Positions 21,741 through 40,975 of a stretch of 64,000 nucleotides of DNA are shown here, piece after piece. Each line of letters starts with the position of its first letter. Positions within the stretch are counted from its first letter, which is position 1. The notes beneath the pieces are model-generated. The model was not told the DNA's origin and searched no databases. It saw only the letters and a list, made by a program, of their open reading frames with translations. The position numbers and the translations under genes were made by a program. Source of the stretch: an uncultured bacterium (GTDB taxonomy: Bacteria; Actinomycetota; Acidimicrobiia; Spongiisociales; UBA5794); the NCBI GenBank assembly GCA_963801165.1, contig CAWDDT010000005.1, forward strand, positions 384,001 to 448,000, in the 5' to 3' direction.

Positions 21741-21927
21741 CGGCGCCGGGCGGATCCGTCCCAACCATTCGGAGCGATTGACCCGTACGGTGGTTGTCCC
21801 GACAGGGCGAAGGAAGACGTCATGCCCGACAGTGCCGCACGCAGAACCGCCACGGCTGACTCCTTCCTCTACTTGTCTGATGGTGCGAGGGGTTGGATCC
21901 ACTCCCTCGTGTTGAAGTCGATTTCCC

Positions 21928-22027
21928 GGACGTCTGGTGGGACGTCTGGCGGGATGTCTGGTGGGACGTCTGGTGGGACGTCTGGTGGGACGTCTGGTGG
22001 GACGTCTGGTGGGACGTCTGGTGGGAC
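21928..22027. repeat. 12-bp tandem repeat GGACGTCTGGTG, 8 copies plus a partial
   Basis: Read directly; copies 2 and 3 each carry one mismatch. Confidence 0.95.
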
Positions 22028-22106
22028 TAAGGATCTGCCAAATCAAACCGGATCCTGGTTGAGACTGGTCACTAGCCTTGACGGGGCACCCAATAGGGAG
22101 CGATGC

Positions 22107-22586: not shown

Positions 22587-22607
22587 CGTCGCAAGAAACG
22601 GCAGGGG

Positions 22608-23489: not shown

Positions 23490-23490
23490 G

Positions 23491-24444: not shown

Positions 24445-24578
24445 AGCTCCTCCAGAGGGGACAGCTCCCGCGATCATATACAGGGCATCACCGCGAGATG
24501 GCGAGCCGGGTGGGAATCTCGACACGTTCCTCCGATTCTTCGGGGAGGTCCGTAGCATTGGGGGTGGAGGTGTGTGTG

Positions 24579-25667: not shown

Positions 25668-25681
25668 GCCGCATTCCGGCT

Positions 25682-26464
25682 TCAGAGTCCCAGGACGAAC
25701 GCTCCGTATCCCACCACCCGATCGGATGGCCCGGCCGTGTCGCCCGAGTTTCTCAGGTCGAGCATCGTCACCCGATAGCCGAGACGGGTCGCCAGCTCCA
25801 ATGCAATCTGGATGGCCGTGCGCCCGCAGGCGGACTCATGCTCGAGCGCGGCCCAGTCGAGCCGGACGATGGCCGCGGCGGTGGCCGCGTCGAGGCGACG
25901 TGCAATCTTCGAGTCGTAGTAGTGCGAGAGATCCGAAGAGACGAGCAGCAATGTCTTGTCATCGAGAAGGGGGGCAACGACGTCGGCTCCCTGCCTGGGT
26001 GTTATCGCTCCGGTCAGCAGCGGCACCACCGAAACGCCCGGTGTCACCACCTGGAGGAACGGGAGCTGCACCTCGAGCGAATGCTCGCGCCTATGGGCCT
26101 CCGGGTCCTCGGTGACCAGCGAATCCGCCAACAGTCCGCGGCATGCATCCGCGTCGATCGAGACGATCCCGAGCGGTGTCTCCATACCGTCCGCCCCGGG
26201 CAACGTCATCCCGGCAAAAGGCACGTAGTGTGCCGGACCGAGCAGCACCACCCTCTCGACCGGCACGTTCTCGAGACACCGGTATGCGCGAGCCGCCACC
26301 GGTCCGGAGTAGATGTATCCCGCATGGGGAACAATCAGCATGCGCACCGACGAGTCGGGTTGCGGCACCCCTGCCGCGTCGAGGTGCGCCCGGACGTCGC
26401 CCTCCAGCCGGACGGGATCGGAGGGATAGAAAGTGCCTGCAACCGCAGCTCGGCGTGTCGACAT
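25682..26464 (-). CDS. amrB: AmmeMemoRadiSam system protein B (MEMO1 family)
   Basis: 'AVAGTFYP', 'PHAGYIYSG', 'EHSLEVQLPFLQ', 'SSDLSHY', 'VVGY'. Confidence 0.95.
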   Translation of the reverse strand: MSTRRAAVAGTFYPSDPVRLEGDVRAHLDAAGVPQPDSSVRMLIVPHAGYIYSGPVAARAYRCLENVPVERVVLLGPAHYVPFAGMTLPGADGMETPLGIVSIDADACRGLLADSLVTEDPEAHRREHSLEVQLPFLQVVTPGVSVVPLLTGAITPRQGADVVAPLLDDKTLLLVSSDLSHYYDSKIARRLDAATAAAIVRLDWAALEHESACGRTAIQIALELATRLGYRVTMLDLRNSGDTAGPSDRVVGYGAFVLGL

Positions 26465-26545
26465 ACGACTCCTTCTTCTCAAGGGTACGCTCGCCCGTCA
26501 CCACCGACAAGGTGTGGTCAACCGAGCGACTGACCCCTACACCGC

Positions 26546-27160
26546 TCAGTCGTTCTCGACACAGTGCGGTGTGCCCGCATCAATCGGCCAGATGGCTTCG
26601 GCGTCCGCAGCGCGAGCTCGCAGTTCGGTGGCGTCGATCACGAGACGGCATTCCGGAATGGCGAAAGCCGGCCACTCGGCGACGATAGTCAGCGGTCCCG
26701 CCGGCGGCAGAGGCCACACCCAGTACTGCATGTTGTAGGAATCCTCTCCCCCTCCGCCCCGGCGAAAGCCGATAATCGGTTGCTTGGGTCGGTCGTCGGC
26801 GTGCTTGGGCTGCCACCGTCGCTCGAGATTTGTCCACTTCGTCCCGTCCGCCAGCATCACCCCCAAACGAAGAAAGTCATCCGAAAGCGGTTGCGATCGC
26901 GGTCCGTGCAGATCGAAAACGAGATCACCCTGATAGTCCTCCGGGTTGCGAAAGCGGACATGAAGGGTGAACTCGAGACCGTTCGGGTAGACCAGGAAAC
27001 GGTGGGCCATCATGAACACCTGGTCGGTCTTGAACACCTGAGCGTTCTGCGCCGACACACCCGGCAGCATGCCGGGTGGCGGTCCCAGCCACTCCGGCTG
27101 CTGCCCTCCCGGCCATCGAGGCGGTTCGGGAGGTGGAGCAGGAACCTCGAAGAAGCTCAC
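26546..27160 (-). CDS. Hypothetical protein
   Basis: Protein-like composition ('PEWLGPP', 'YPNGLEF', 'YWVWPLPPAGPL...EWP'); GTG start inferred. Confidence 0.6.
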   Translation of the reverse strand: MSFFEVPAPPPEPPRWPGGQQPEWLGPPPGMLPGVSAQNAQVFKTDQVFMMAHRFLVYPNGLEFTLHVRFRNPEDYQGDLVFDLHGPRSQPLSDDFLRLGVMLADGTKWTNLERRWQPKHADDRPKQPIIGFRRGGGGEDSYNMQYWVWPLPPAGPLTIVAEWPAFAIPECRLVIDATELRARAADAEAIWPIDAGTPHCVEND

Positions 27161-27214
27161 GCCGGAACAATAGCGAGCCTGGTGGTTGTCGCCTCGTGGC
27201 GATACATTGGAGCC

Positions 27215-27742
27215 ATGGACGAGCATCCCTACGTGCAGCTGGCCAGACAGGCGATCGAGCGCTACGTGAAGGACAACGAGCTGATTCGCCCGGACGCCGA
27301 GCCCGGCGATCCGCCGCCGGTGGCATTGTTTGTCTCGATTCACGAGCGACCCGAACCCGGGGAGGCCGAAGGACGCTTGCGAGGATGCATCGGATCTACC
27401 GTTCCCACAGAGCCGACTCTGCGTAGCCAAATCGCCCGCTTGGCCGTATCGGCAGCCGTGTCCGACCCGAGGTTCCCACCGCTGACACCGGGTGAGCTGG
27501 AAGGACTCGACATAACCGTCTACCTGCTCGGCGAGCGAGAGCAGGTGGCTGATCTCTCTCAGCTCGACCCTGCCCGCTACGGCGTCATCGTCGAGAAGCA
27601 CGGGCGCATAGGCCTTCTGCTGCCTGCGATCCCATCGATCACGACCCCGGAACAGCAGGTCGCAATTGCCCGGCAGAAGGGACGCTTCCGCCCCGACGAG
27701 GACTTAGCCATGTACCGTTTCGAGGCAACGATCCTGCATTGA
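27215..27742 (+). CDS. amrA: AmmeMemoRadiSam system protein A (AMMECR1 domain)
   Basis: 'LFVSI...LRGCIGS', 'DPRFPPL', 'YGVIV...GLLLP', 'YRFE'. Confidence 0.92.
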   Translation: MDEHPYVQLARQAIERYVKDNELIRPDAEPGDPPPVALFVSIHERPEPGEAEGRLRGCIGSTVPTEPTLRSQIARLAVSAAVSDPRFPPLTPGELEGLDITVYLLGEREQVADLSQLDPARYGVIVEKHGRIGLLLPAIPSITTPEQQVAIARQKGRFRPDEDLAMYRFEATILH

Positions 27743-27804
27743 TCGGCGTGTTTTGCGTCGCACATCTCTCCTAGGCTGGCTCTTCACGCGATAGAGGAGC
27801 TTGC

Positions 27805-28371
27805 ATGGCTGTGGAATCGACAATGCTCGCGCTGGGAACCGCGGCGCCCGATTTCGATCTCGTTGACACAGTGAGTGGCCAACCCGTCAGCTTGGCCGAC
27901 CATTCTTCCAAGGCGCTCGTGGTCATGTTCATCTGCAACCACTGCCCATACGTCAAGCACGTCCAACAAGGTCTGGTCGAGTTCGGTCGTGACTATGCGG
28001 ACGCCGATGTGGACATCGTGGCCATAAGCTCCAACGACGCCACTGCCTACCCGGACGACGCCCCCAACGAGCTAGCCGCAACCGCCAGGAGGTTGGGCTA
28101 CCCCTTCCCGGTCCTCTACGACGAGACGCAAGAGGTGGCCAGGGCGTACACCGCGGCGTGCACACCGGACTTCTTTGTCTTTGGTCCCGAGCGCACCCTC
28201 GTATATCGCGGTCGCTTCGACGAATCGCGCCCCGACTCCGGCCTCCCGGTTACGGGCGCCGACCTACGAGCTGCGGTCGATTCCGTAATCGCTGGTGAGT
28301 CGGTCGCCGATATGCAGTACCCCTCGATGGGATGCAGCATCAAGTGGGCCCCGGGAAACGAGCCGTACTGA
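27805..28371 (+). CDS. Thioredoxin/AhpC-TSA (redoxin) family protein
   Basis: 'MFICNHCPYV', 'AACTPDFF', 'SMGCSIKW'. Confidence 0.92.
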   Translation: MAVESTMLALGTAAPDFDLVDTVSGQPVSLADHSSKALVVMFICNHCPYVKHVQQGLVEFGRDYADADVDIVAISSNDATAYPDDAPNELAATARRLGYPFPVLYDETQEVARAYTAACTPDFFVFGPERTLVYRGRFDESRPDSGLPVTGADLRAAVDSVIAGESVADMQYPSMGCSIKWAPGNEPY

Positions 28372-28392
28372 TCCCATGACCTGACTCGTACC

Positions 28393-29388
28393 TCAGCCGG
28401 TGACCTGCTCCATCCACGCGACCAGCTCGTCGGGAAGGTCGATACCCTCGGCCGCAGAGCGCTCTCTGTTGCCGAGACGGCGGCTGCCGGGAATCCGGGT
28501 GCCCGGCTGGTCGGTGACGGCATCGAGCAGCACCTCGAGCCGCTCCGTATAGCTGCCTCCACTGAGCGGACCGGGATCGAAGCCCAATAGGAACTGCCCT
28601 ACCCGCGGCGGCTCACCTTCGGTCTCGAAGAACGAGGACGCCTCGAAACCAAAGTTGGCGCCTGTCATTGCAGCCGCCATGATCTCGACGGCCAGCACCA
28701 GGGCCGCACCCTTAGCGTCGCCGAGTGGCAGCATCGAGCCGCCGAGCGCGGCCGCAGCGTCGGTGGTTGGCTTGCCGGCGGCGTCCAATGCCCACCCCTC
28801 AGGTATCTCCCGTCCCGTGTCGGCGGCGAGCTTCACCTTGCCCCGGGCTTGTTTCGAGAGTGACAGATCGACAACCACTGGAGGAGCAGCCGTCCGCGGG
28901 AATCCGAATGCCATCGGGTTGGTGCCAAAAAGCGGTCGGAACCCACCCCACGGAGCAATGCCCGCAGGCGAGTTTCCGACCACCATCCCGACAGCGCCCC
29001 TCTCGGCGAGCCGCTCCACGTGGTGACCCGCTACGCCGAAGTGATGCGAGTTGGTGATGGCGATCCCGGCGATGGGCGTCACGGCCAGCATGTCGACCAT
29101 CGTCTCGATCGCCAGATCGAGGGCCGGGAAGGCAAACCCCTCCCGGGCGTCGATGCGGGCCGCCGAAGGGCCCAGTATCTCGAGCTCGGGGACGGCGCTA
29201 CCGGCGACCTTGCCCGTCGTCACCTGACCGGAGTATGCCCGGAGCCGTGCCAGTCCGTGTGAGTGGAGACCGTCGGCGTCGGCCCGAACCAGCGCCAGGG
29301 CCACCGACCCTGCCGCCGGCTCGGATGTGCCTGCGTTCACCAGCACCCGCCTGGCGAGCTCCACGAGCTGTTCCGCAGTGCGGATCAT
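28393..29388 (-). CDS. comC: Ldh_2 family dehydrogenase, probable (R)-sulfolactate dehydrogenase
   Basis: 'SHGL', 'NSHHFG', 'FGTNPMAF', 'GWALD..G.PTTD', 'KG..L'; adjacent to suyAB. Confidence 0.75.
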   Translation of the reverse strand: MIRTAEQLVELARRVLVNAGTSEPAAGSVALALVRADADGLHSHGLARLRAYSGQVTTGKVAGSAVPELEILGPSAARIDAREGFAFPALDLAIETMVDMLAVTPIAGIAITNSHHFGVAGHHVERLAERGAVGMVVGNSPAGIAPWGGFRPLFGTNPMAFGFPRTAAPPVVVDLSLSKQARGKVKLAADTGREIPEGWALDAAGKPTTDAAAALGGSMLPLGDAKGAALVLAVEIMAAAMTGANFGFEASSFFETEGEPPRVGQFLLGFDPGPLSGGSYTERLEVLLDAVTDQPGTRIPGSRRLGNRERSAAEGIDLPDELVAWMEQVTG

Positions 29389-29397
29389 CGCCGTCTC

Positions 29398-30561
29398 CTA
29401 TGCAGACTGGTACAGCTTGGTGAAGATGAATTCACGATGGCCGAGCGTCTCGGCTGCAGTGTTCCGTCCGTTCGCCGTACGCACGACCATGTCGATCAGC
29501 GCGTCACCGGCCTCATCGAGAGTCATCTCGCCGCTGAGCAGACCAGAGACGTCGAGGTCGACGTGGTCGGCCATGAGCCGGGCGGTACGGGGATTCGCCG
29601 TCACCTTGATCACGGGCATTACCGGGTTGCCGATGATGTTGCCCTGACCCGTGGTGAAGATATGAAGCGCAAACCCGGCCGCAGCCTGAAGCGTGTTGCA
29701 CTCGGCGGCTGCAGACGACGTGTCCATGAAGTACAGCCCCGGCCCCTTGGTCGGGGGCTGGGCCGGTACCAGCACATCGATGTACCTGGTGGCCTTCCCG
29801 ATCTTCTGCAGGTTGCCGAACGCCTTCTCCTCGATCGTGGTCAGACCACCTTCGATGTTGCCTGCGGTCGGCTGGCTCTCCGACAGATCGCTCGTCTTGT
29901 GTTGGTTGATCATGTCGTTGTAGGCGTTCCAGGTATCCAGGAACTTCTGCCGTACCTCGGGAGTGGCCGCCCGTTCGGCGCACACCATCTCGGCGCCGGT
30001 CAGCTCGGAGGTCTCCCCAAAGCAGAGGTATTGGCCCTCAGGCTCGAGTTTGTCCATCAGGTTGCCGACGGTCGGGTTGCTGGCGAGACCGGAGGTCGTG
30101 TCCGACTCACCGCATTTGGCGGCGATCCACAACTCGCTCAGTGGTACCTCTTCGCGCTGAAGCTCGGTCGCGTACTGAACGAACTCCTGCGCCTTGCGGC
30201 CGGCCATTGCCGCGGTCTCGAGATCGCCATGCCGCTCGATGGAAAACCCGGCGACCGGTTTCCCGGTGGCGGCGATGCCGTCGACTACCCGCTGGGTCCA
30301 CTTGGGCTCGATCCCGATGACGATGGCGGCAGCGACGTTCGGGTTGGACCCGGTACCGATGAGCGTGTCGAAGGTCAGTTCGAGGTCGGGGCCGAACTGG
30401 AGACGGCCGTAGGCATGGGGCAGGGCGATGGTACCGACGATGTTGTTGGCGACTTTCTCTGCGCACACGTTCGAGATGTCATCGACCGGGAGAATGATCA
30501 CGTGGTTGCGGATGCCGACGCGGCCGTTCTTGCGCCGGTAGGCGTTGATGGTTCGAGTCAT
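29398..30561 (-). CDS. suyB: (2R)-sulfolactate sulfo-lyase beta subunit (UxaA family)
   Basis: '[21 protein letters not shown]', '[12 protein letters not shown]', '[10 protein letters not shown]', '[14 protein letters not shown]' resemble SuyB. Confidence 0.85.
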
Positions 30562-30572
30562 CGTTTCCTCCT

Positions 30573-30857
30573 TCACCACTTCTTGGTCTTGACGTTATGG
30601 ATGTGAACGTGATGGCCGGTGGAAATGTCGTCGGTCACCAACCCGATGTCGTACCCGTACTTGATCAGGGTGTCGCCCCTGGCGAGATCGACGAGCGCGA
30701 TCTTGTGACCGAGCGGGATCGGCTCCTGCGCCTTCATCGACCTGCTCTCGTTTGTGTCCATGACCCAGACGGTCAGGTCCTGGCCCGTCTCGATCCCTTC
30801 AACAACAGCGACTCCGACCGAGTCGGAACTGTCGTGGATGACTATGTCCGGTTTCAT
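30573..30857 (-). CDS. suyA: (2R)-sulfolactate sulfo-lyase alpha subunit (SAF domain)
   Basis: '[13 protein letters not shown]', 'IPLGHKIAL', 'IKYG.DIG', '[12 protein letters not shown]'; GGAGG RBS. Confidence 0.85.
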
Positions 30858-30875
30858 TGTTGCTGCACCTCCGGT

Positions 30876-30909
30876 AGGCGGTTTGCCAGGCGGTTTGCCA
30901 GGCGGTTTG
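30876..30909. repeat. 12-bp tandem repeat AGGCGGTTTGCC, about 3 copies, in the suyA leader
   Basis: Read directly. Confidence 0.8.
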
Positions 30910-30918
30910 TTGTGCGTT

Positions 30919-30931
30919 GGTACCGGTTCCA
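30919..30931. promoter_or_regulatory. Putative operator TGGAACCGGTACC (minus strand) upstream of suyA
   Basis: 12 of 13 bases match the palindrome at 36176-36188. Confidence 0.5.
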
Positions 30932-30973
30932 TTGGCACACGCCGCCGACTGTAGCAGGGTGTGCCGAACGTTT

Positions 30974-32053
30974 TCAGGACATGTCCTCGCCGAGGACCTC
31001 CGTCATCATCACAGGGCGACCCTCGTCTATTGACAGGTGGGCCGCCTGCCCGACCGCGACCGCCAGCAGCCCGTCTTCGAGCGTGACAGAAGCCGGCGTC
31101 CCGGTGCGGATCGCGGTGGCGAAGTCGAGATGCTCCAGATAGGACGCACCCTCGTGGAGACCGCGGTAGGCGACGTGATCCTCGGACACGGCGACCTCCC
31201 TGACAGAGCGCTCTGCGCGTCTCCCGACCCGCATCACGGCATCGGGGACGAACGACTCCACCTTGCCGACGTCGCCGGTCACCGCAAGCTCCTGCTCGTT
31301 GCGTGACCCCTCGGCGAACATGCACAGGTCGAGCAGCGCCCTGATGCCGTTCTCGAAGTCGACGATGACAAAGGCGTTGTCGAGCAGATCCGGGGTCTCA
31401 CCGTTGTACCGCTCCTGGAGATGGTTGACGTCCTGGGCACCCGAGCCGTACACCCGGACCGGGCGCGACTCGGCAATGAGGGTCATCAGGTCGAAGAAGT
31501 GGCAACACTTCTCTACGAGAGTCCCGCCGGTGTTGCGGTTGAACCTGTTCCAATCCCCCACTTTGACCAGGAAGGGGAACCGGTGTTCGCGGATGGCGAT
31601 CATCTTGATGTTGCCGACCGCCCCGGCACGCACCTGCTTGATCAGCGCCTGGATCGGCGGCTTGTATCGATACTCGAGCCCCATCCAGATGATGCCCTTG
31701 TGCCCCTCAGCGGCCTTCAGGATGCGCCGGCATTCGGCAACTGTTGTCCCGAGCGGCTTCTCCACCATCACGTGGACGTCGGTGGCGAGGATGTCCTCCA
31801 TGATGTCGGCGTGTGTGTGATTCGGTGATACGAGAACCACCGCATCACACACACCGGCCGCCAGAAGATCCCGATGAGACTCGAAGACCATGTTGTCCGC
31901 GATGTCCGCGGTGTTCTGACCGAACTTGCGCGACCGGGGATCCGGGTCCGAGATCGCCACGACACTGGCCCCATCGATTGCATTGACGTTGTTTATGTGC
32001 TCGAGGCCCATCATCCCCGTGCCAATCACGCCGTAGCGGATCTTGTCCGTCAT
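30974..32053 (-). CDS. sqgA: NAD+-dependent sulfoquinovosidase (GH188-type, Gfo/Idh/MocA fold)
   Basis: 'GLEYRY.PP', 'IREHRFPFLVKVGDWNRFNRNTGGTLVEKCCHFFDLM', 'LDLCMFAEGS', 'H.GASYLEH'; sulfonate-gene context. Confidence 0.8.
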   Translation of the reverse strand: MTDKIRYGVIGTGMMGLEHINNVNAIDGASVVAISDPDPRSRKFGQNTADIADNMVFESHRDLLAAGVCDAVVLVSPNHTHADIMEDILATDVHVMVEKPLGTTVAECRRILKAAEGHKGIIWMGLEYRYKPPIQALIKQVRAGAVGNIKMIAIREHRFPFLVKVGDWNRFNRNTGGTLVEKCCHFFDLMTLIAESRPVRVYGSGAQDVNHLQERYNGETPDLLDNAFVIVDFENGIRALLDLCMFAEGSRNEQELAVTGDVGKVESFVPDAVMRVGRRAERSVREVAVSEDHVAYRGLHEGASYLEHLDFATAIRTGTPASVTLEDGLLAVAVGQAAHLSIDEGRPVMMTEVLGEDMS

Positions 32054-32082
32054 CACTGTCTCCTTGTGCTCGGCCCGAGCAC

Positions 32083-33105
32083 CTAGTCAGGAATGCCGAG
32101 ATACTTGTTGGTCGTCGCCACGGCCTCGGCACCGGTGGCGTGCATTTCCATCGCGGCGCGGACCGCGTCGATCGTCTCGGGGATCGTCACCGACTCCTGT
32201 GGGATGTTGATCCCCCACACGACGTCATCGCCGGAGAGACCCACCATCTCTTCCCACAAGCCGATCTCATACATATCGGCCCGTGGGTACTCCATGTACC
32301 GCGCCCACTGGAACAGCGAGGCGTTCGAGTTGAAGCCGTCGGCGATCCGGACGACCTTGATGCGCGGGTAGGCCTTGAACGCTTCGAGAGCTCGGTCTAC
32401 CGAGATCTTCGCCTTCGGCGTCGCACACAAAGTGATGATGTGTCCGTGGGTGACCGGGGTGTGGATCAAGAGGCCGGTGGCGTCGACACCCTCCATGATG
32501 TTCGACAGGTCGACGGCCTGGTGGTTGGGGATCGGCTCCACCTGGAGCACGTTGGTGAGACCACGGTGCGTATCGCCCGGGTCGGCGACACGGCGGATGA
32601 TCGTGATGAATACCTTCTCGACCCCCACAGCCTTGTGGATGGCGTCGACGGCGCGGATCAAGCCGGTGGTGTTACACGAGGTCAGCTTGAGGTAGTCCTT
32701 ACCGAGACCCTTCTCGTAGTTGACGGTTCCGTGGAAGAACACATCTGCGACAGATCCTGCTTCGCCGCCCTGGAAGACGGCCTTGACGCCCGCGGCGACA
32801 TACTTCTCCTTGTTTTTCGCACCGATCCCGCCGGGGGCGGCGTCGAGCATCACATCGACCTCACCGAGGAGATCGTCGAAGTTCCCCGAGACCGGGATAC
32901 CCGCTGCTTCCAGCGCCTTTTCGGCACCGTCCATCGCGGTGAACAGCTTGTAGGGCATACCGCGCGCCGCGAGCGCACGCACCGGCAGCGTTGGAGCGAC
33001 ATCGGCCACACCGACCAACTCCATGTCCTCTTGCCGGGCAACGCCGGCGGCGAGCCGGTTGCCGATCACTCCATACCCGGCAACGCCGACCTTCACCTTG
33101 CTCAT
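32083..33105 (-). CDS. Archaeal-type (type II) phosphorylating GAPDH homolog
   Basis: 'GYGVIG.R.A', 'FQGGE', catalytic 'SCNTTGL', 'IRR.ADP', 'QES..IPE.IDAVRA'. Confidence 0.9.
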   Translation of the reverse strand: MSKVKVGVAGYGVIGNRLAAGVARQEDMELVGVADVAPTLPVRALAARGMPYKLFTAMDGAEKALEAAGIPVSGNFDDLLGEVDVMLDAAPGGIGAKNKEKYVAAGVKAVFQGGEAGSVADVFFHGTVNYEKGLGKDYLKLTSCNTTGLIRAVDAIHKAVGVEKVFITIIRRVADPGDTHRGLTNVLQVEPIPNHQAVDLSNIMEGVDATGLLIHTPVTHGHIITLCATPKAKISVDRALEAFKAYPRIKVVRIADGFNSNASLFQWARYMEYPRADMYEIGLWEEMVGLSGDDVVWGINIPQESVTIPETIDAVRAAMEMHATGAEAVATTNKYLGIPD

Positions 33106-33118
33106 TGCTGTCTCCTCT

Positions 33119-34531
33119 CTATAGATCGATAACGGGGATACCCCAGCGAGCCGCCAGGGCTTCTAGCTCCTCGCGATAGTCGCCGTACACGATTCCGAAG
33201 TGGTGTTCCAGGCCTTCTCTGGCGATGGTCGCGACGATCTCGGGTGCGGGCACGTCGAACTCGACAACGCCTGCAGTTCCCGAGAATGCAAGCGGTTCTT
33301 CGAGCATCGTACCGCCCCCTATGACCAGCGACTGCATCCCTCCTGCCTGGCTCAGCCGGCAGATCGTCACCCTGCCGGGACGCAGGGCGAACTCATTGAG
33401 CAGGGGCAGCTTCCGGTTCGAGTGAATCGTGCCGACCGCGGAACCGTCGTCAGGCGCCATGTGCATCGGGGCGAGCCCGCAGTGCCACATCACACCCGTC
33501 CTGCCCACGATGTCCATCTCCACCAGATCTGCGACAAAGGCAGGCTCGCCTGCGATGTACTGGAGCAACAGAGCAGTTACGTTTCCATAGACGTCGGCCT
33601 CGCAGGTTCCCGGCGTCCCATCGTCGATGAGCATGCTCTGTGGCGAGCAGGCGGCGCCGCCGAACTCGGTGAAGCACTCAGGCCAGCATCTCGTGGCGAC
33701 ACCGGCCCAGGACCGCTCGTCGATCATCTTCTTCAGCCCGCCGTAGAGGCTCAGCGACCTGCCGAGCGACATCTGGTCGAGGCCGTCGAGATCGCCGAGC
33801 GAGGATTCGGCGCGCCTCCTGGTCGCCGCGATGGTCTCGGCAGGTGTTGCGGCCGCCGCGGCGAACATGTCGGCGAGCTGGCTGCGTTCCACCGTCACCC
33901 CGGTCACCGCGGCAAGCGTCCCCGCGTCGTAGCCGCAGGGGTCGAAGCCGGTTGGCCGATCACCGATGACCCCGATCGTCGTCTCCGCCAGACGGGCGGC
34001 AACACCCGCCGCGGTTGTGGCGGCCGCTGCTGTCGTCTCCCGCGCCGGTCTTCTGCGGCTGGCTTCCTGCGTGATGCCCCGGGAGAGAATCTGCTCGATG
34101 TCGGCAACGGCGCCGGGATCGTCTGCGGCGCGGTGAACGTAGGCGAAGCTGCTCGCCGCCCGCACGAGAGCGAACGCGGCCAGGTTCAACCCGCAGAACG
34201 AGTTGAGCCTCAGCCTCCCTCCGGTCCTGGCCTCGGGGAAAGACCAGATGATGATCGGCGTCTCGAACCTCGCCCCGATTGCCTCGGTCATCGACGAGTC
34301 GGTGAACGAAACCTGGAGCAGCAGCAACGCATCGAGGTCGCCGTCGCTGAATTGCTCTAGTGCCAATTCGGTGCTGGCGGCGTCGAAAAGCAGGTCCGTC
34401 GTCCCGATCAACTCGGCATCGAGACCACCCAGGGTCGCCAGCGCCGCGGCCGCTACCTCTTCTGCGTACGGAACGTCGAACGTGGGGCGGGCAAGCGCCA
34501 GCACGCCGAGTCGTCTCCGGGACCGGGTCAT
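33119..34531 (-). CDS. Sulfoquinovose isomerase (SqvD/SftI-like, fucose-isomerase fold)
   Basis: 'R.TFD', 'W...E...GGRLRLNS', 'RCWPE.F', 'CEADVYG', 'WHCG.AP', 'EHH..IVYGD'; directly downstream of the SF transaldolase. Confidence 0.78.
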   Translation of the reverse strand: MTRSRRRLGVLALARPTFDVPYAEEVAAAALATLGGLDAELIGTTDLLFDAASTELALEQFSDGDLDALLLLQVSFTDSSMTEAIGARFETPIIIWSFPEARTGGRLRLNSFCGLNLAAFALVRAASSFAYVHRAADDPGAVADIEQILSRGITQEASRRRPARETTAAAATTAAGVAARLAETTIGVIGDRPTGFDPCGYDAGTLAAVTGVTVERSQLADMFAAAAATPAETIAATRRRAESSLGDLDGLDQMSLGRSLSLYGGLKKMIDERSWAGVATRCWPECFTEFGGAACSPQSMLIDDGTPGTCEADVYGNVTALLLQYIAGEPAFVADLVEMDIVGRTGVMWHCGLAPMHMAPDDGSAVGTIHSNRKLPLLNEFALRPGRVTICRLSQAGGMQSLVIGGGTMLEEPLAFSGTAGVVEFDVPAPEIVATIAREGLEHHFGIVYGDYREELEALAARWGIPVIDL

Positions 34532-34535
34532 GGCA

Positions 34536-35198
34536 CTACTCGTAGGGGGTCTCGTCCCAGAATGACTGGAACTTGGCGAGACCCACGTCGGTGTAGGGAT
34601 GGGCGAACGCATCCTGGAAGACAGGCATCCCTGCGGTGACGATGTCGGCACCGACCACGGCGGAGTTGACTATCTGCCTGGCGTTGCGGGCTGCCGCAAC
34701 GATAATCTCGGTCTCGAAGCCGTATACGTCGCGGATCGCCGCCACTTCGTCGACGAAGTGGGTGATCTCCTCACCGTTGCTCTCCTTCCAACCGATGAAC
34801 GGGGAGACGAACGCCGCCCCCATCCGCATCGCCTGGAGGGCTTGGGCCGCTGAGAAGACCAGGGTGAGATTCGAACGGATGCCCTGGTCGGCAAGCTCGA
34901 AGACTGCCTTGAACCCGGGCTCGGTTGCGGGCAGCTTGATGACGAAGTTGGGTGACATGGCGGAGAGCTTCTTCCCCTCGGCGACCATCGTCTTCCAATC
35001 ATCGAGGTGAGGGTTGACCTCCACCGAGATCGGCTTGTCGGTGCCGTCGAAGATGGTGGCGATCTCGTTGATCACCTTGAGGAACGGCTTGCCCGACACC
35101 TGGACGTGACGGGGGTTGGTCGTGACGCCGTCGATATTCCACATCTCGAGGGCGTACTCGATGTCATCGGTCTTGGCACTGTCGAGGAAAAACTTCAC
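34536..35198 (-). CDS. 6-deoxy-6-sulfofructose transaldolase (SqvA/SftT-like)
   Basis: 'MKFFLDSA', 'GVTTNPRH' (Arg where housekeeping TalC has NPS/T), 'SVEVNPHL', 'SPFIGWKE' (Trp in place of the usual GR). Confidence 0.85.
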   Translation of the reverse strand: MKFFLDSAKTDDIEYALEMWNIDGVTTNPRHVQVSGKPFLKVINEIATIFDGTDKPISVEVNPHLDDWKTMVAEGKKLSAMSPNFVIKLPATEPGFKAVFELADQGIRSNLTLVFSAAQALQAMRMGAAFVSPFIGWKESNGEEITHFVDEVAAIRDVYGFETEIIVAAARNARQIVNSAVVGADIVTAGMPVFQDAFAHPYTDVGLAKFQSFWDETPYE

Positions 35199-35207
35199 GT
35201 TTTGCTC

Positions 35208-36140
35208 CTAACTTGTCGTGAGAGTCTGTAGAACGTTGGCAACCGTCACCTCGCTGACGCGGGTGTTCGATTCGGCGGTGAGGCCGGCGATATGGGGGGT
35301 GAGGACGATGTTGTCGAGCCCGGCGAACTTCAGGGCGCCCTCCTCGGTCAGCGGCTCCTCCTCGAATACGTCGAGCGCCGCCCCCGCGAGATGACCCCGG
35401 CGGACGGCATCGGCGAGGGCTACATCGTCGACGACCCCACCCCGGGACGTGTTGATGACCACAGCAGCGGGTGCCAGCCACGCCAGTGCGGCGGCATCGA
35501 GGATGTGCCGGGTATCGGCGGTGAGCGGGACGTGAATGCTCACTGCGTCGCGGCCGGTGAGCAACGACTTCACCGTGTCGTATCTCGTGATCCCCTGCCA
35601 GACAGGGTCGTCGGCAGCTAGGAAGGGGTCGTATGCGGAGACCGTCATGCCGAGGGCGGTCGCCCGCTCGGCGACGAGCCGAGCGATTTCGCCGAAGCCG
35701 ACGAGAGCCAGGCTCTTGCCCGCTGTCTCCCTGCCCTGGAGGTCCGCCCGTGGCCATGATCCACTCAGCATCCGCACCTTCGAGGCATACGCACCCCGAA
35801 ACAACATGAGAAGGGCGGCGATGACGTACTCGGCAACGGCGACGGCGTTGGCTCCGGTGGCCGGATGGACAGCTACCCCACGCCGGGCACAAGCGTCCAG
35901 ATCGATGTTGTCGAGACCGACGCCGAGCCGGCCGACGACACGCAAGCGCGGGGCAGCATCAAGCAGCTCCTCGTCGACCCTGGTTCGGTTGCGAACGATG
36001 ATCGCCTCGGCTTCGGCGAGCTCGGATAGCAACCGGGATCGGTCATCTACGAGGCCGGGATCGAAAGAAAGACTGAACTTTCCCTGCAACGGCTCGAGAG
36101 CATCTCGGCTCATGAATTCGGATACGACTATCTGTGACAT
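35208..36140 (-). CDS. slcC: (S)-sulfolactate dehydrogenase-like D-2-hydroxyacid dehydrogenase
   Basis: 'SEFM', 'LVDDR..L', 'IVRNRTRV', 'GRLGVGLDNID', 'PATGAN..AVAEYV', 'WPR', 'TPHIAG.T.ESN.RVS' resemble SlcC. Confidence 0.75.
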   Translation of the reverse strand: MSQIVVSEFMSRDALEPLQGKFSLSFDPGLVDDRSRLLSELAEAEAIIVRNRTRVDEELLDAAPRLRVVGRLGVGLDNIDLDACARRGVAVHPATGANAVAVAEYVIAALLMLFRGAYASKVRMLSGSWPRADLQGRETAGKSLALVGFGEIARLVAERATALGMTVSAYDPFLAADDPVWQGITRYDTVKSLLTGRDAVSIHVPLTADTRHILDAAALAWLAPAAVVINTSRGGVVDDVALADAVRRGHLAGAALDVFEEEPLTEEGALKFAGLDNIVLTPHIAGLTAESNTRVSEVTVANVLQTLTTS

Positions 36141-36175
36141 CGAGAAACCTCACTGATCTCAACTTAGACTACTAC

Positions 36176-36188
36176 TGGAACCGGTTCC
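36176..36188. promoter_or_regulatory. Palindromic operator (T)GGAACCGGTTCC in the divergent slcC/ABC promoter region
   Basis: Perfect 12-bp palindrome at 36177-36188. Confidence 0.6.
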
Positions 36189-36323
36189 GTTTTTCAACCG
36201 GAAATCTACGGCAGCTCTCGTCCTCTGGCAGTACATGGATGGACGTGACTTTGAGACAGCGAGGGTCGTCGTTATTGTTGGAAACGCGTCGGCGCTCGGC
36301 CGGCGCTCAAGGAGGAGGACTCC

Positions 36324-37733
36324 ATGAAGCAACTCAAGTGGTTGCTGCTGGTAGTTGTGTTTGCCATGCTCGCTGCGGCGTGCGGCAACGACAGCTCTGG
36401 GGACACAACGACGGCAGCTCCATCGAATACAACTGCGGCGGCTACAACGACAACTGCAGGCAGTACAGAAACCACAATGGCCGAGACCACGACCACCGCA
36501 GGAATGGTCGATCTCACCGGCACCAAGGTGACGGTGTTTGGTCCCGAAGAGACCGCGGCTGAGGCAGGATCGCTGCAGGCGACCCTCGATCTCTTCGCCG
36601 CACAAACCGGCATAGAGATCGTCTACACCGGTGCTCGCGACGCGTCGGATCAGATCAACGCACAGGTAGCCGGCGGCAACCCGCCGGACATCTTCGTGTT
36701 CCCGCAGCCAGGCAAACTGGCCGACTTCGCCCGGCAGGGTGCTCTGTACCCGCTGCCTGACGATGTGCTGGCAACGGTCGCGGCAAACCAGAGTGATGCG
36801 TGGACTTCGTTCGGCAACGTCGACGGTGTCCAGTACGGCATCCCGACCAAGGCCGACCTCAAGTCGCTCGTCTGGTATCAGCCGGCGCGTTTCGCAGCCG
36901 CCGGCTACACGATCCCGCAGACGTGGGACGAGCTCAAGGCCCTCAGCAACCAGATGATCGCCGACGGCAACACGCCGTGGTGTGTCGGCATCGAGTCCGG
37001 CGCCGCCACCGGGTGGCCGTTCACGGACTGGGTCGAGGATCTGATGCTCCGTTACTACGGGCCCGATGTCTACGACCAGTGGGTCTCGCACGAAGTTCCG
37101 TTCTCGGACCAGCGCGTCATCGACGTGTTCAATCAGATCAGGGACCTCTGGGATACCCCCGGAGCGGTATATGCAGCAGGCGGTTCCATCGCTTCCACCG
37201 CTTTTGGTGACAACGGCGAGCCGCTCGTCAACGGCGACTGCTTCATGCACCGCCAGGCGTCGTTCTTCTCGGCCTTCTTCCCGGATGGGACCCCGGTCGC
37301 CGACGGTAGTGATGGCGCAGTTGACGTCTTCTACTTCCCGGCTGTTGATCCGAACACCCACCCGGTGCTTGGTGCCGGTACGTTGGTCGGTGCGTTCCGC
37401 GACGCTCCCGAGGTGTGGGCAGTGATGAACTACTTCGCCACCTCGGAGTACGGTCAGAACCGGCAGAAGCTGCAGGCACTCTCTAAGGGTGGCGGCGGCG
37501 CACTGTCCGGCTTCCTGTCGCCGGCAACGCAGCAGGACATGAGCGTGTACAACCCGCTCGAGCAGTCGTTCCTCGACATTCTGGCGAGTGCGGATGTTGT
37601 CCGATTCGACGGATCCGACCTGATGCCGACAGCCGTCGGCTCGGGCGCCTTCTGGACCGAAGGAACCAGCTTCATCAATGGCCAGGAGGACGCTGCAGCA
37701 GCAACCGCGGCCATCGATGCGGCGTGGCCGTAA
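36324..37733 (+). CDS. Sugar ABC transporter substrate-binding lipoprotein (AglE/GgtB alpha-glycoside-like)
   Basis: Lipobox LAAAC, Thr-rich linker, 'PQPG', 'KSLVWY', 'WCVGIESGAATGWP.TDWVED', 'RFDGSDLMP'. Confidence 0.9.
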   Translation: MKQLKWLLLVVVFAMLAAACGNDSSGDTTTAAPSNTTAAATTTTAGSTETTMAETTTTAGMVDLTGTKVTVFGPEETAAEAGSLQATLDLFAAQTGIEIVYTGARDASDQINAQVAGGNPPDIFVFPQPGKLADFARQGALYPLPDDVLATVAANQSDAWTSFGNVDGVQYGIPTKADLKSLVWYQPARFAAAGYTIPQTWDELKALSNQMIADGNTPWCVGIESGAATGWPFTDWVEDLMLRYYGPDVYDQWVSHEVPFSDQRVIDVFNQIRDLWDTPGAVYAAGGSIASTAFGDNGEPLVNGDCFMHRQASFFSAFFPDGTPVADGSDGAVDVFYFPAVDPNTHPVLGAGTLVGAFRDAPEVWAVMNYFATSEYGQNRQKLQALSKGGGGALSGFLSPATQQDMSVYNPLEQSFLDILASADVVRFDGSDLMPTAVGSGAFWTEGTSFINGQEDAAAATAAIDAAWP

Positions 37734-37895: not shown

Positions 37896-40004
37896 ATGGA
37901 TCGAGTATTCGCAACATTGATCAGCATCGTGGCCGCGGTCGGCGGTAGCGCGGGGCTGTTCGTCGGAGCCAACAAGCTCTTTGACCTGGCACGAAGCCGG
38001 TACCCGGTCTTTAGCTCCATGATTGGAGCGCTGCTCGGCTTCAGTACCGGGCTCTTGATGTGGGCCAACCGTGTTTCCATAGTGGGCCACGGGCCGCTGG
38101 TCGGTGCCCCGAACCCAACCGGGTTCGTCGCAGCCGTCGACTTCGTGGTGACGCTGGTTGCCAACACCATCGTGCCGACGCTCATCGGTCTGGCCGGGGG
38201 CTGGCTGTACGCCAGGGTGAGCGGGTCGGCCGTCACCTCGACCCAGTACCAGCTCGGTGACCGTGAGGCCGAAGATACGCCCACGACGATGTCGGACAGT
38301 GTCCGGAGGAATCGGTTGCTGGTGGCCATGGCCACCACCGGACTGCTGGGGCTGTGGTTTGCGCTCTTCTACGAGCTGGCCCTGGTGCCGGCGTTCGAGA
38401 TCGGCAAACTCATCATCTGGACGGTTATCGGGCTGGCCATTGCCGCGGCACTCTGGTACACGGGTAAGCGGAGATCGCCGCTCGGAGCCTCACTCGCCCT
38501 CGGCGGAGGCCTCGGTTGGCTCATCGGCACGATGGTCGCCCCCCAACTGGGGGACTTCAAACGGGTGCTGTCTATTGCCGGCATGGATCTAGACGGTGAC
38601 CAGATCTGGACAATTCTGGCGATGGTGATCGGCTTCGTTGCCGTCGGTGCATACATCGGCCTCAAGCCCGTCGCCAGATATCCAACGAGAGACAGAATCG
38701 CCCGGAATTCGCGCGTGTACATATTCCTCGGCCCGGCGCTGCTATTCATCTTCGCCTCGCTGATGCTGCCTGCGTTGCGCACCATCTGGCTGTCGTTCCT
38801 TGGTCCCGACGCGACGCTGCCGCCCACCGAGCGTGCCGCCGGTGGCGTTGACAAGCTTGTCGGGTTGACCAACTACAAGGACGTGTTCAGCGACCCGAAC
38901 AACTGGAATCTGAGCAACTGGTCCGACATCTTTGGCAGTACGCTGTTCTGGGGCGCGATCATCCTGATCGTAGGCGGGGTCATAGCCGGTATCGTGCTGG
39001 GTCGGCAGCGCGGGATGTCGTTCGAGAAATCAGGCGGCTCGCTGGCCCCGATCTCAATCGGTGCGTTCCTGCTGCTCACCTCCCTGTTCGCCGCATTGCG
39101 GGGAACCGTGTTCAACAACCTGTGGTGGGTGGTTGCGGTCACCACCCTGGCAAGCGTGTTCGGTTTGGCAGTCGCCGTGCTGGCGGACAGGGCCAAAATG
39201 GAGAACATCGCCAAATCGCTGATCTTCATGCCGATGGCGATCTCGTTTGTCGGCGCCGGCATCATATGGCGGTTCGTCTACAACGCCAGGGAAGTTCGTC
39301 AGGATCAGACGGGTGTGCTGAATGCCATCTGGGTCGCTCTTGGCCAGCTGTCAAACAGCGGTTGGCCCAAGGTCCTAGCGGCATTGCTGCTTGCAGCCGT
39401 CATCGCAGGCCTGGGTTACATGAGCTGGCGGGGTTATAAGGCAGGGGCGACCGGGCTTTTCGCCGGCTCGCTGGTAACGGCGCTGCCGTTCCTGTACATC
39501 CTGGTACGGCTCCTCACCAACGGTATCGGCGGGTTCTCGGTAGCCGACGACGGCACGATACTCAAAGAGACGATCCTCGTTCGTGAGTCCAGCCCGTACA
39601 ACAACCTGTTCCTGATGGTGGTCCTGATCTGGATCCAGACCGGATTCACGATGGTCATCTTCTCGGCAGCGATCAAGGCGGTCCCCTCTGATCTGATCGA
39701 AGCGTCGAAGGTTGACGGCGCTACCGAGTCGCAGACGTTCTGGCGGGTCACCATCCCGCAGATCGCACCGACGATCGGCGTGGTGATAACAACGCTGATC
39801 GTGTTGGTGATGAAGGTCTTCGACATCGTCAAGGTCATGACAAACGGGAACTTCGACACCCAGGTACTAGCCAACGCCATGTTCACAACCGCCTTCACGA
39901 ACTTCAACTTCGGTAAAGGTTCGGCGCTGGCGGTGCTGATCCTCCTATCGGTGCTCCCGGTGATGATCTTGAACATACGCCGCATGCAGAAGGAGGCCCG
40001 CTGA
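37896..40004 (+). CDS. Sugar ABC transporter permease with long N-terminal membrane extension
   Basis: 'FLGPAL', 'KSLIFMPMAISFVGA', EAA loop 'IEASKVDGA', 'KVFDIV'. Confidence 0.9.
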   Translation: MDRVFATLISIVAAVGGSAGLFVGANKLFDLARSRYPVFSSMIGALLGFSTGLLMWANRVSIVGHGPLVGAPNPTGFVAAVDFVVTLVANTIVPTLIGLAGGWLYARVSGSAVTSTQYQLGDREAEDTPTTMSDSVRRNRLLVAMATTGLLGLWFALFYELALVPAFEIGKLIIWTVIGLAIAAALWYTGKRRSPLGASLALGGGLGWLIGTMVAPQLGDFKRVLSIAGMDLDGDQIWTILAMVIGFVAVGAYIGLKPVARYPTRDRIARNSRVYIFLGPALLFIFASLMLPALRTIWLSFLGPDATLPPTERAAGGVDKLVGLTNYKDVFSDPNNWNLSNWSDIFGSTLFWGAIILIVGGVIAGIVLGRQRGMSFEKSGGSLAPISIGAFLLLTSLFAALRGTVFNNLWWVVAVTTLASVFGLAVAVLADRAKMENIAKSLIFMPMAISFVGAGIIWRFVYNAREVRQDQTGVLNAIWVALGQLSNSGWPKVLAALLLAAVIAGLGYMSWRGYKAGATGLFAGSLVTALPFLYILVRLLTNGIGGFSVADDGTILKETILVRESSPYNNLFLMVVLIWIQTGFTMVIFSAAIKAVPSDLIEASKVDGATESQTFWRVTIPQIAPTIGVVITTLIVLVMKVFDIVKVMTNGNFDTQVLANAMFTTAFTNFNFGKGSALAVLILLSVLPVMILNIRRMQKEAR

Positions 40005-40975
40005 TGACCGCAGTCGACGGACGCGCCATGGCCGAGAGGGCGGCAAGCTCCGAGGGTGGCGTCGGGAAACGGATCTACCGCTTCCTGAAGGCAATCCCCA
40101 CGTGGGTCCTTTGGATGCTGGTCATCCTGTGGACCATCCCCAGCTTGGGCCTGCTTGTCAACAGCTTCAGGCCCCGCGACGCCCAAAGGGCGACCGGCTG
40201 GTGGACCACGTTCACCGGCCACGGCGGCGGGTTGACCCTGGCCAACTACAAGGAGGTGCTGAGCGCAGGAGCGACGGGTGGTCTTGGGCAAGCGTTGCTC
40301 AACTCGATGGCGATCGCGATCCCTGCGACCATCATCCCGATTGCAGTAGCGGCCTTCGCCGCATACGCATTCGCCTGGATCGACTTCCGGGGGCGGGAGT
40401 GGCTGTTCATCGCAACGGTCGCCTTGATGTCGATCCCGCTCCAGGTGGCGCTGATCCCGCTGCTCACCACCTACTCGGGCGGTGCGCACTGGACAATCCC
40501 GCTGCTTCACCGAACGCTGACGTTCTTCCCCGACTTCTCCTTATCGGGGACGGTGACGGCAGTGTGGTTGACGCACACCGGATTCGCCTTACCGTTCGCC
40601 ATCTTCCTGCTGCACAACTACATATCCGGCCTACCGGCAGATGTGTTCGAGTCGGCGCGGATCGATGGCGCTGATCACTACAGGATCTTCTGGAGTCTCG
40701 TAGTCCCGCTGTCGGTTCCCGTGCTTGCGGCGTTTGCGATCTTCCAGTTCCTCTGGACTTGGAACGACTACCTGATCGCCTTGACGATGATCGGAGGTAA
40801 TGGCCCAGCCTTCCCGATAACGGTCAAGATCGCCTCGCAGGCGGGCTCGTTCGGTCAGAACGAGCACTTGCTGACGGCGGGTGCGTTCGTCTCGACCGTG
40901 GTACCGCTGGTGGTGTTCTTCTCGCTGCAGCGATACTTCGTCAGAGGGATCCTGGCCGGGTCGGTCAAGGGATAG
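40004..40975 (+). CDS. Sugar ABC transporter permease
   Basis: 'ESARIDGA', 'QFLWTWND', 'LQRYFVRG.LAGSVKG'. Confidence 0.93.
   Translation: MTAVDGRAMAERAASSEGGVGKRIYRFLKAIPTWVLWMLVILWTIPSLGLLVNSFRPRDAQRATGWWTTFTGHGGGLTLANYKEVLSAGATGGLGQALLNSMAIAIPATIIPIAVAAFAAYAFAWIDFRGREWLFIATVALMSIPLQVALIPLLTTYSGGAHWTIPLLHRTLTFFPDFSLSGTVTAVWLTHTGFALPFAIFLLHNYISGLPADVFESARIDGADHYRIFWSLVVPLSVPVLAAFAIFQFLWTWNDYLIALTMIGGNGPAFPITVKIASQAGSFGQNEHLLTAGAFVSTVVPLVVFFSLQRYFVRGILAGSVKG

Follow-up and report, generated by a model that had tools for sequence, protein, structure and literature searches.

In the 64,000-nt window analyzed here, a stretch of contig CAWDDT010000005.1 from an uncultured bacterium of the Acidimicrobiia, the gene at 32083 to 33105 codes for a homolog of type II glyceraldehyde-3-phosphate dehydrogenase (GAPDH-II) and lies inside an operon for the breakdown of sulfoquinovose (SQ), a plant sulfo-sugar. 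We propose that the protein is a phosphorylating (S)-sulfolactaldehyde (SLA) dehydrogenase, which would make 3-sulfolactyl phosphate and, together with a phosphoglycerate kinase (PGK) paralog encoded elsewhere in the genome (PGK2), ATP; judged from sequence and gene context, the balance tips slightly in favor of this assignment. The wider proposal, to which we give an even chance, is that sulfoglycolysis has an unrecognized ATP-yielding step formed by a GAPDH-II sub-clade and a PGK without Arg65, as one specialization of a widespread bacterial module that turns acid aldehydes into ATP. The source genome, G000, comprises 4.55 Mb in 13 contigs with 64% G+C and carries a bacterial 16S rRNA gene; the window is on its contig C5, and the nearest named relatives of the GAPDH-II gene are found in Acidimicrobiia/Ilumatobacteraceae metagenome-assembled genomes (MAGs). 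With a pI of 5.4, this 16S rRNA gene, and these relatives, a haloarchaeal origin was discarded.

The operon consists of eight minus-strand genes with successive gaps of 9, about 4, 13, 26, 116, –7, and 9 nt, in which GAPDH-II is separated by 13 nt from the gene of a putative SQ isomerase and by 26 nt from that of an SqgA-type sulfoquinovosidase (Table 1). The SqgA protein matches the structures of ArSqgA (PDB 8qc3; 1.3e-100, 340 bits) and FlSqgA (PDB 8qc2; 3.1e-96). According to the available part of PMC10755693, eight residues of ArSqgA contact SQ, including the sulfonate ligands Arg166 and Lys172. All eight are kept in the aligned window protein, and because of these matches and residues, we assign the cluster to SQ. 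The isomerase has sulfoquinovose isomerase NF048012 as its sole NCBIfam match (254.6 bits, against a cut-off of 700), and no relative of it was found in the PDB; its open reading frame (ORF) extends to 34651, the likely start being the ATG at 34531, and homolog alignments begin at ORF residues 42 to 47. The transaldolase scores 186.8 bits with TIGR00875 (FSA/TalC), under the cut-off of 245.95, and the PGDH-like dehydrogenase scores 277.4 bits with TIGR01327 (PGDH), under the cut-off of 454. The SuyA-like protein matches TIGR03248 over positions 25 to 79 (34.3 bits), and its gene overlaps that of the SuyB-like subunit by 7 nt; for SuyB homologs with 73 to 92% identity, JGI automatic annotation gives the name “(2R)-sulfolactate sulfo-lyase subunit beta” and NCBI “UxaA family hydrolase.” The Ldh_2-family protein finds its best NCBIfam match in L-sulfolactate dehydrogenase NF040650 (182.3 bits, cut-off 500) and aligns with the L-sulfolactate dehydrogenase of PDB 2x06 (2.6e-34). 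As predicted from these genes, the operon steps would yield SLA and use sulfolactate, and the sole step without an enzyme is the conversion of SLA to sulfolactate. The preliminary description of this region had noted neither an SlaB of the aldehyde dehydrogenase (ALDH) family nor a sulfolactaldehyde reductase in the cluster, and this can be extended to the whole of contig C5, where no match to Aldedh (PF00171) or NAD_binding_2/YihU-type proteins is present (the 12 and 13 matches in G000, respectively, are all on other contigs).

The assignment of the gene to type II GAPDH is clear. It scores 375.2 bits with NF003251 (type II GAPDH; cut-off, 185) and 287 bits with TIGR01546 (cut-off, 232.9), and four archaeal GAPDH structures align over its full length (2czc, 2e-70; 1cf2, 6.2e-68; 2yyy, 5.4e-63; 1b7g, 4.6e-61), whereas type I GAPDHs reach just about 1e-5. 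Its domain content is Gp_dh_C with a weak DapB_N match and no Aldedh (PF00171) fold, and a GGAGA ribosome-binding site is located 6 to 7 nt 5′ of the ATG. In the Methanothermus fervidus GAPDH, as described in the accessible text of PMC12041015, Cys140 is flanked by Ser139 and Thr142, His219 serves as the base with Asn141, the phosphate site is composed of Ser139, Asn141, Arg167, His193, and His194, and Arg167/Arg168 bind the substrate phosphate. When the window protein is aligned to this structure (1cf2), the catalytic SCNTT falls at residues 143 to 147, His220 of a THGH motif takes the place of the base, and the equivalent of Arg167/Arg168 is the RR at residues 171 and 172. Four of the five residues of the inorganic-phosphate site are kept; His194 is replaced by Gln196, as in all 74 members of the clade described below. 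The surrounding segment reads PNHQAVDL against PSHHGPDV in 2czc and 1cf2 (Ser192 to Asn, His194 to Gln, and Gly-Pro to Ala-Val). Profile scores and structure alignments thus bear out the earlier reading of a type II GAPDH with intact SCNT and RR motifs and this altered segment. The segment itself is no trait of SQ clusters, since it occurs in all 74 aligned bacterial clade members, and we discarded PNHQAVD as an adaptation to SLA because it is found throughout the clade. At the position of Lys33 of 2czc and 1cf2, a residue typical of NADP-dependent archaeal type II GAPDHs in the literature at hand, the window protein has Asp, which suggests that it prefers NAD+.

The window GAPDH-II is a member of a bacterial accessory clade and not of the archaeal one; it fits the motif P[NS]HQA.D and falls within this clade in the tree. 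A scan of genome contigs for GAPDH-II homologs gave 79 loci, and of 201 sampled genomes from the order, searched at ≥67% identity for GAPDH-II and ≥60% for PGK2, 33 have GAPDH-II, counts of this kind resting on related, partly incomplete MAGs and on thresholds. Three unpublished genomes (G004, G016, and G196) are counted in the whole-sample tallies only, and several neighbors in related loci are assigned solely from BLAST matches to proteins annotated in the window or the loci. With a presence in 33 of 201 genomes, the gene is accessory, and the same count rules out the housekeeping type II GAPDH of the lineage. PGK2 is found in exactly the same 33 genomes and is adjacent to GAPDH-II in 31 of them. 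An ORF-based survey places a protein of about 416 aa, a PGK according to Pfam, directly 3′ of GAPDH-II in 42 of the 74 loci where a homolog was called, and tblastn detects this PGK within 4 kb in 37 of 42 loci outside, and 18 of 33 loci inside, the sub-clade that we call type B. Genes for a tartrate-dehydrogenase-like Iso_dh, a split transketolase, LarA, and malic enzyme also recur near GAPDH-II in the clade. The 3-phosphate is bound in pig muscle PGK by Arg65, Arg122, and Arg170 (available part of PMC7729029). In the alignment of the PGK2 clade, all 47 sequences have AHQG[D/S/G].. in place of the SHLGRP of the G000 PGK1, so that Arg65 is lost, with Asp23, Asn25, Arg122, and Arg170 being kept. 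From these residues, the GAPDH-II/PGK2 pair looks like a phosphorylating dehydrogenase and a kinase for an analogue of glyceraldehyde-3-phosphate (GAP) that carries another anion at its distal end. A second type II GAPDH-like clade, 36 to 37% identical to the window protein and with no PGK2 homolog nearby, is found in three genomes of the order (L105, L106, and L107; G006:C93, G018:C14, and G008:C101) and served as an outgroup only.

G000 contains a single type II GAPDH, the window gene, and a single type I GAPDH on contig C6 next to PGK1. Its two PGKs are PGK1 on C6 and PGK2 at C7:74911-76092, none being present on C5; GAPDH-II and PGK2 are therefore not adjacent in this genome. The preliminary description had fallen back on a housekeeping PGK or on hydrolysis to complete the step, neither of which is needed with the PGK2 paralog on C7. 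This PGK2 lacks Arg65 (motif AHQGDT) and is located outside the window in an Iso_dh-PGK2-TK_N-TK_C operon (C7:73001-77214; locus L085 7001-11214), in which an ARMT1-like phosphatase follows the split transketolase and the tartrate-dehydrogenase-like Iso_dh scores 450.5 bits with TIGR02089 (cut-off, 470.4). The layout matches that of L042 or G083 (Iso_dh-GAPDH-II-PGK2) minus GAPDH-II. Fourteen genomes with the window-type gene were searched for PGK2, the related locus types L035 and L007 included: it lies on another contig in 11, a second GAPDH-II accompanies it in G206 alone, and in five it is an orphan among unrelated genes, for instance, those of a PIG-L deacetylase or a ribonucleotide reductase. 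In G210 (L115 3802-4410), a GAPDH-II remnant with an internal deletion, of which residues 1 to 136 and 254 to 338 are left, sits between Iso_dh and PGK2. PGK2 is thus kept intact where the sole GAPDH-II is that of the SQ operon, which argues for a joint function.

Type B comprises 33 rows of the tree, namely, 13 window-type copies, L007, L011, and 18 PGK-linked Ilumatobacteraceae copies, and has 100% SH-aLRT support in a quick maximum likelihood tree in which the branch order inside type B is not resolved; the second GAPDH-II copy of G083 belongs to a separate Iso_dh-linked clade. At 16 positions, the window-type copies differ from those of type A and of Bacillota/Chloroflexota; at 12 of these, type B has a private, nearly invariant residue, six being listed in Table 1 and the others being N16, Q266, M271, Y273, V296, and D333 (D333 in most copies). 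A homolog of the isomerase, the transaldolase, or SuyB lies within 4 kb of 20 of the 33 type B loci and of none of the 42 other clade loci. A link of GAPDH-II homologs to sulfoglycolysis genes is thus seen within type B and not outside it, and most homologs are unlinked. Three further arrangements were found, among them operons of other lineages that resemble sulfo-EMP2: L032 and L076 have a PfkB kinase-GAPDH-II-PGK-isomerase operon, preceded in L032 by SulP and TauE genes; L074 has a GAPDH-II-PGK-LacD-type aldolase-isomerase operon; and in six loci, SuyBA and LarA are divergent from GAPDH-II-PGK. A metagenome scan of 80 loci added one PGK-isomerase pair (L118) and one SuyBA divergent from GAPDH-II-PGK (L120). 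The closest relative of the window GAPDH-II, at 91% identity, is found in L035 (10001-11021; G213:C6:46023-46847); its one-frame match begins only at residue 66, and the N-terminal part may carry a frameshift or an assembly error.

The distribution of SlaB-like ALDHs provides a further line of evidence. Isomerase homologs occur in 24 of the 201 genomes, and 14 isomerase loci were compared, one of the window type (G083) and 13 resembling sulfo-EMP2; of the latter, 12 have a kinase, 9 a LacD-type aldolase, and 9 SqgA, and an SSADH/SlaB-like ALDH lies inside the cluster in two (L093 and L099). The PGDH-like gene is kept in 11 of the 14. With the in-cluster SSADH/SlaB-like ALDH as query and E ≤1e-120 as a match, a threshold on which the result depends, a SlaB-like ALDH is present in 110 of the 201 genomes and absent from G000 and G083. 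In the set of 24 genomes with the isomerase, the ALDH is found in 0 of 6 with GAPDH-II versus 13 of 18 without it (Fisher P = 0.0034), the genomes being related, several of them incomplete, and the six spanning four families; in the whole sample, the values are 7 of 33 with GAPDH-II versus 103 of 168 without it. The mutual exclusion of GAPDH-II and slaB that the preliminary description had predicted was thus observed among isomerase-bearing genomes. In 8 of the 13 sulfo-EMP2-like clusters, a threonine-synthase-like pyridoxal phosphate enzyme (NF006050; 648.7 bits in L093) adjoins the PGDH-like dehydrogenase, with examples at L093 13321-14577, L011 11036-12235, and L016 6430-7635; in L016, it stands in place of the SuyAB and Ldh_2 of the window-type cluster. 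This enzyme may cleave cysteate or another sulfonate, mirroring serine biosynthesis with sulfonate for phosphate.

In the pathway that we propose, SqgA would free SQ, which the SftI-like isomerase would convert to sulfofructose, and the transaldolase would move C1 to C3 to GAP, freeing SLA. GAPDH-II would form a thioacyl intermediate on Cys144 that is phosphorolyzed to 3-sulfolactyl phosphate, and PGK2, encoded on contig C7, would transfer the phosphate to ADP, giving (S)-sulfolactate and ATP. The PGDH-like and ComC-like dehydrogenases would then invert sulfolactate via sulfopyruvate, and SuyAB would yield pyruvate and sulfite. From the comparisons described above, we infer that the substrate is SLA, that the product is an acyl phosphate, that ATP is gained, and that NAD+ is preferred. 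SLA and D-malate semialdehyde differ solely in having a sulfonate or a carboxylate, and GAPDH-II probably accepts the latter too; a like ambiguity, between malate and sulfolactate, is seen in the Ldh_2 and LarA families. The data are most simply accounted for if the clade oxidizes aldehydes of the type OHC-CH(OH)-CH2-X(–) to acyl phosphates for a PGK without Arg65 and if type B was recruited to SLA in SQ catabolism, probably with its carboxylate activity retained; such a recruitment would explain the decay of type A in genomes with type B.

The gene might instead serve the Iso_dh-PGK2-transketolase pathway of C7 and code for a phosphorylating dehydrogenase whose substrate, a GAP analogue with a carboxylate (D-malate or tartrate semialdehyde), is produced there; it would then be merely carried along in the SQ operon, with an unlinked ALDH oxidizing SLA. 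We regard this as unlikely. The following observations speak for it or weigh against an SLA dehydrogenase. Most members of the clade sit with Iso_dh, split transketolase, LarA, or malic enzyme genes, and these carboxylate-type neighbors indicate a carboxylate aldehyde. Neither PNHQAVD nor any catalytic residue varies within the clade, to which Bacillota and Chloroflexota without sulfo-sugar genes also belong, so that no known active-site residue marks specificity for SLA. Neighbors of type B copies further include Iso_dh (L080), transketolase (L104), and IolB (L007, L011, and L016; TIGR04378, 261.7 bits against a cut-off of 205), and the LarA beside a SuyB-like gene in L025 scores as malate racemase (529.8, cut-off 462). 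No SQ genes accompany the gene in L035 or in G171, a sister species within the genus, in both of which it follows an ABC transporter at the syntenic PanB...AhpC locus. The Iso_dh-PGK2-transketolase operon of G000 has its gap exactly where GAPDH-II sits in L042 and G083, its PGK2 is unlinked to the window operon, and the promoter region of the SQ operon and the region upstream of Iso_dh-PGK2 on C7 share no word of 10 to 14 nt. Finally, G000 has 12 ALDH-family matches elsewhere, and 18 of the 24 isomerase-bearing genomes lack GAPDH-II, which, with an ALDH in only 2 of 13 clusters, means that an unlinked SLA dehydrogenase is common. Against a gene that is simply carried along speak its place between isomerase and SqgA, which is kept in all 13 full-length window-type loci although the isomerase has diverged to 73 to 76% identity, and the recurrence of the GAPDH-II/PGK pair in two other layouts of sulfo-sugar operons. 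G083 and G206 keep a type A copy beside PGK2 as well as a type B copy in the SQ operon, the 12 private, nearly invariant residues set type B apart, and a SlaB-like ALDH is absent in exactly those isomerase-bearing genomes that have GAPDH-II.

Oxidation of SLA might also proceed with no conservation of energy, the acyl intermediate or acyl phosphate being hydrolyzed, no ATP being made, and PGK2 being irrelevant. The location of PGK2 outside the operon, the differing PGK2 lineages among genomes with the window-type cluster, the lack of a PGK2 match in 3 of the 14 window-type genomes (the completeness of which is not known), and the altered residue of the phosphate site (His194 to Gln) are in line with this. 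We consider it improbable, since the same replacement is common to PGK-adjacent copies, the four other residues of the site are kept, PGK2 is intact in 11 of 14 genomes even as an orphan gene, and the two genes co-occur in 33 of 33 genomes. Very improbable in our view is an ordinary GAPDH serving triose-phosphate flux or the supply of GAP as acceptor during growth on SQ. The protein does score above the cut-offs curated for two models of type II GAPDH, its catalytic and Arg-Arg residues are intact, and the transaldolase step consumes GAP (PMC13436972, available part); against this, a canonical type I GAPDH adjoins PGK1 in G000, the gene is accessory (33 of 201 genomes), its obligate partner PGK2 is devoid of the 3-phosphate ligand Arg65, and Asp replaces the Lys33 of NADP-dependent archaeal enzymes. 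A phosphorylating SLA dehydrogenase acting with a PGK-like kinase, as first suggested in the preliminary description, draws support from the operon genes, the strict co-occurrence with PGK2, the other sulfo-sugar operons, and the exclusion of SlaB-like ALDHs, and is weakened by the clade-wide motif, by the unlinked homologs outside type B, and by G171, in which SQ genes are missing at this locus.

Archaeal type II GAPDHs (1CF2, M. fervidus; 2CZC, Pyrococcus horikoshii; 2YYY, M. jannaschii; and 1B7G, S. solfataricus) share with the window protein full-length homology, the Ser-Cys-Asn-Thr motif, His219, and Arg167/Arg168. Unlike them, the window gene is bacterial and accessory, has a PGK partner without Arg65, and lies inside an SQ operon. 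The same step, SLA to sulfolactate, is assigned to SlaB/GabD-type ALDHs (Rhizobium leguminosarum, PMC10599462; PMC13436972; PMC12890257; available parts), whose Aldedh fold is unrelated to the Gp_dh_C fold of GAPDH-II and whose reaction is hydrolytic, with no acyl phosphate or ATP as proposed for GAPDH-II. The sulfo-TAL pathway (SqvA/SftT, SqvD/SftI, and SlaB or a reductase; PMC13436972, sections at hand) has the order of isomerase, transaldolase, and SLA with GAP as acceptor that is predicted for the window operon; the window operon differs in its GH188 rather than GH31 sulfoquinovosidase, in GAPDH-II replacing SlaB or the reductase, and in the candidate sulfolactate lyase branch within the same operon. 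Paracoccus wurundjeri, with a tandem of sulfofucose-ED and SlcC/ComC-SuyAB, has the downstream route that is proposed here, from (S)-SLA via (S)-sulfolactate, sulfopyruvate, and (R)-sulfolactate to pyruvate and sulfite; the available text of PMC12421959 (2025) reports no GabD/SlaB homolog in it and explicitly calls the SLA dehydrogenase “missing.” This organism is a proteobacterium with an upper pathway of the ED type, whereas that of the window operon is of the transaldolase type (same source).

In the sulfo-TK variant, ATP is formed by SqwKL. Together with the sulfoacetyl-CoA-forming SqwD, this variant also oxidizes a sulfonated aldehyde to an activated acyl intermediate (PMC13436972, in the part available); it uses a coenzyme A (CoA) thioester and an ADP-forming ligase on sulfoacetaldehyde, in contrast to the acyl phosphate and PGK-type kinase proposed here for SLA. 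For SLA itself, the accessible text of two 2026 reviews names only the ALDH SlaB for oxidation and YihU-type enzymes for reduction (PMC13436972; PMC12890257). Our literature search, which did not cover the supplementary tables of PMC10755693 and PMC12421959, found no paper on sulfolactyl phosphate or a GAPDH-type SLA dehydrogenase; it likewise found none joining SQ with PGK, transketolase, and lactate racemase, none on natural malate-semialdehyde or type II GAPDH chemistry in bacteria, and none on SQ in Acidimicrobiia. The earlier caution that related GAPDH-like chemistry might already be known in anaerobes was not substantiated by any paper found. The enzyme family and the reaction type are known, and the proposed substrate, acyl-phosphate intermediate, and ATP gain in sulfoglycolysis are new as far as this search reached.

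An ABC transporter is transcribed divergently from the catabolic operon (Table 1). In a terminator and promoter scan of 27500 to 37000, counts were not above those of shuffled sequences; the one sigma-70-like site in the divergent region, on the plus strand at 36251 to 36278, is not above chance, and an Rfam scan of the window gave no match. GGAAC..GTTCC palindromes are present in the divergent region (GGAACCGGTTCC) and upstream of Iso_dh-PGK2 on C7 (GGAACGTTCC); their spacing differs, and they were not counted as evidence of co-regulation. On the other side of the operon, genes for a Radical SAM protein (24498-25667, plus strand), a Memo-like protein (25682-26482, minus strand), and AMMECR1 (26564-27742, plus strand) adjoin at 24498 to 27742, a trio that we take to resemble the AmmeMemoRadiSam association. 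A separate sugar-related group at 19106 to 24594 contains a second Gfo/Idh/MocA protein, a second D-2-hydroxyacid dehydrogenase, an SMP-30/gluconolactonase, and an NAD-dependent epimerase and is syntenic with L007 and L035. The single GH31 glycosidase of G000 (PF01055, 256.7 bits) is encoded at C3:31916-32920, away from the SQ cluster.

Table 1. Features of the SQ operon and the divergent transporter (window coordinates) and type B-private residues of GAPDH-II (type B positions)
Feature	Position	Strand	Basis or remark
Ldh_2-family dehydrogenase, candidate (R)-sulfolactate dehydrogenase (ComC role), last operon gene	28393..29388	minus	Pfam Ldh_2, 309.5 bits
SuyB-like large subunit, candidate (2R)-sulfolactate sulfo-lyase	29398..30579	minus	GD_AH_C, 284.8 bits; GD_AH_second, 109.5 bits
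SuyA-like small subunit, N-terminal part of galactarate/altronate dehydratase family	30573..30857	minus	94 aa
GH188 SqgA-type NAD+-dependent sulfoquinovosidase (Gfo/Idh/MocA family)	30974..32056	minus	PDB 8qc3, 8qc2
Type II GAPDH homolog, type B bacterial sub-clade	32083..33105	minus	340 aa; NF003251, PDB 2czc, type B private residues
SftI/SqvD-like sulfoquinovose isomerase	33119..34531	minus	NF048012 match
TalC/FSA-type transaldolase, candidate sulfofructose transaldolase	34536..35198	minus	Pfam TAL_FSA, 138.6 bits
PGDH-like D-isomer 2-hydroxyacid dehydrogenase, candidate (S)-sulfolactate dehydrogenase (SlcC role), first operon gene	35208..36140	minus	2-Hacid_dh_C, 168 bits
Divergent promoter region, catabolic operon/ABC transporter	36141..36323	no strand	carries palindrome GGAACCGGTTCC
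Sugar ABC transporter substrate-binding protein	36324..37733	plus	SBP_bac_1, 81.2 bits; beside operon in related loci too
ABC transporter permease 1	37896..40004	plus	BPD_transp_1 at residues 530-692; true start probably later than listed ORF
ABC transporter permease 2	40004..40975	plus	BPD_transp_1, 65.3 bits
Type B residue	127		T versus Y in rest of clade
Type B residue	157		H versus D in rest of clade
Type B residue	166		F versus A in rest of clade (V or I in few)
Type B residue	246		Y versus H in rest of clade
Type B residue	267		W versus Y in rest of clade
Type B residue	272		E versus G in rest of clade

If GAPDH-II acts as proposed, sulfoglycolysis would gain one extra ATP per sugar and a new metabolite, 3-sulfolactyl phosphate, and the scoring of pathway completeness in genome surveys, which is now based on SlaB, would change. 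The enzyme might likewise be the SLA dehydrogenase that is “missing” in organisms without SlaB, a gap stated in the available text of PMC12421959. For the large, uncharacterized bacterial GAPDH-II/PGK clade, the SQ operon offers a first sulfonate-linked foothold on function.

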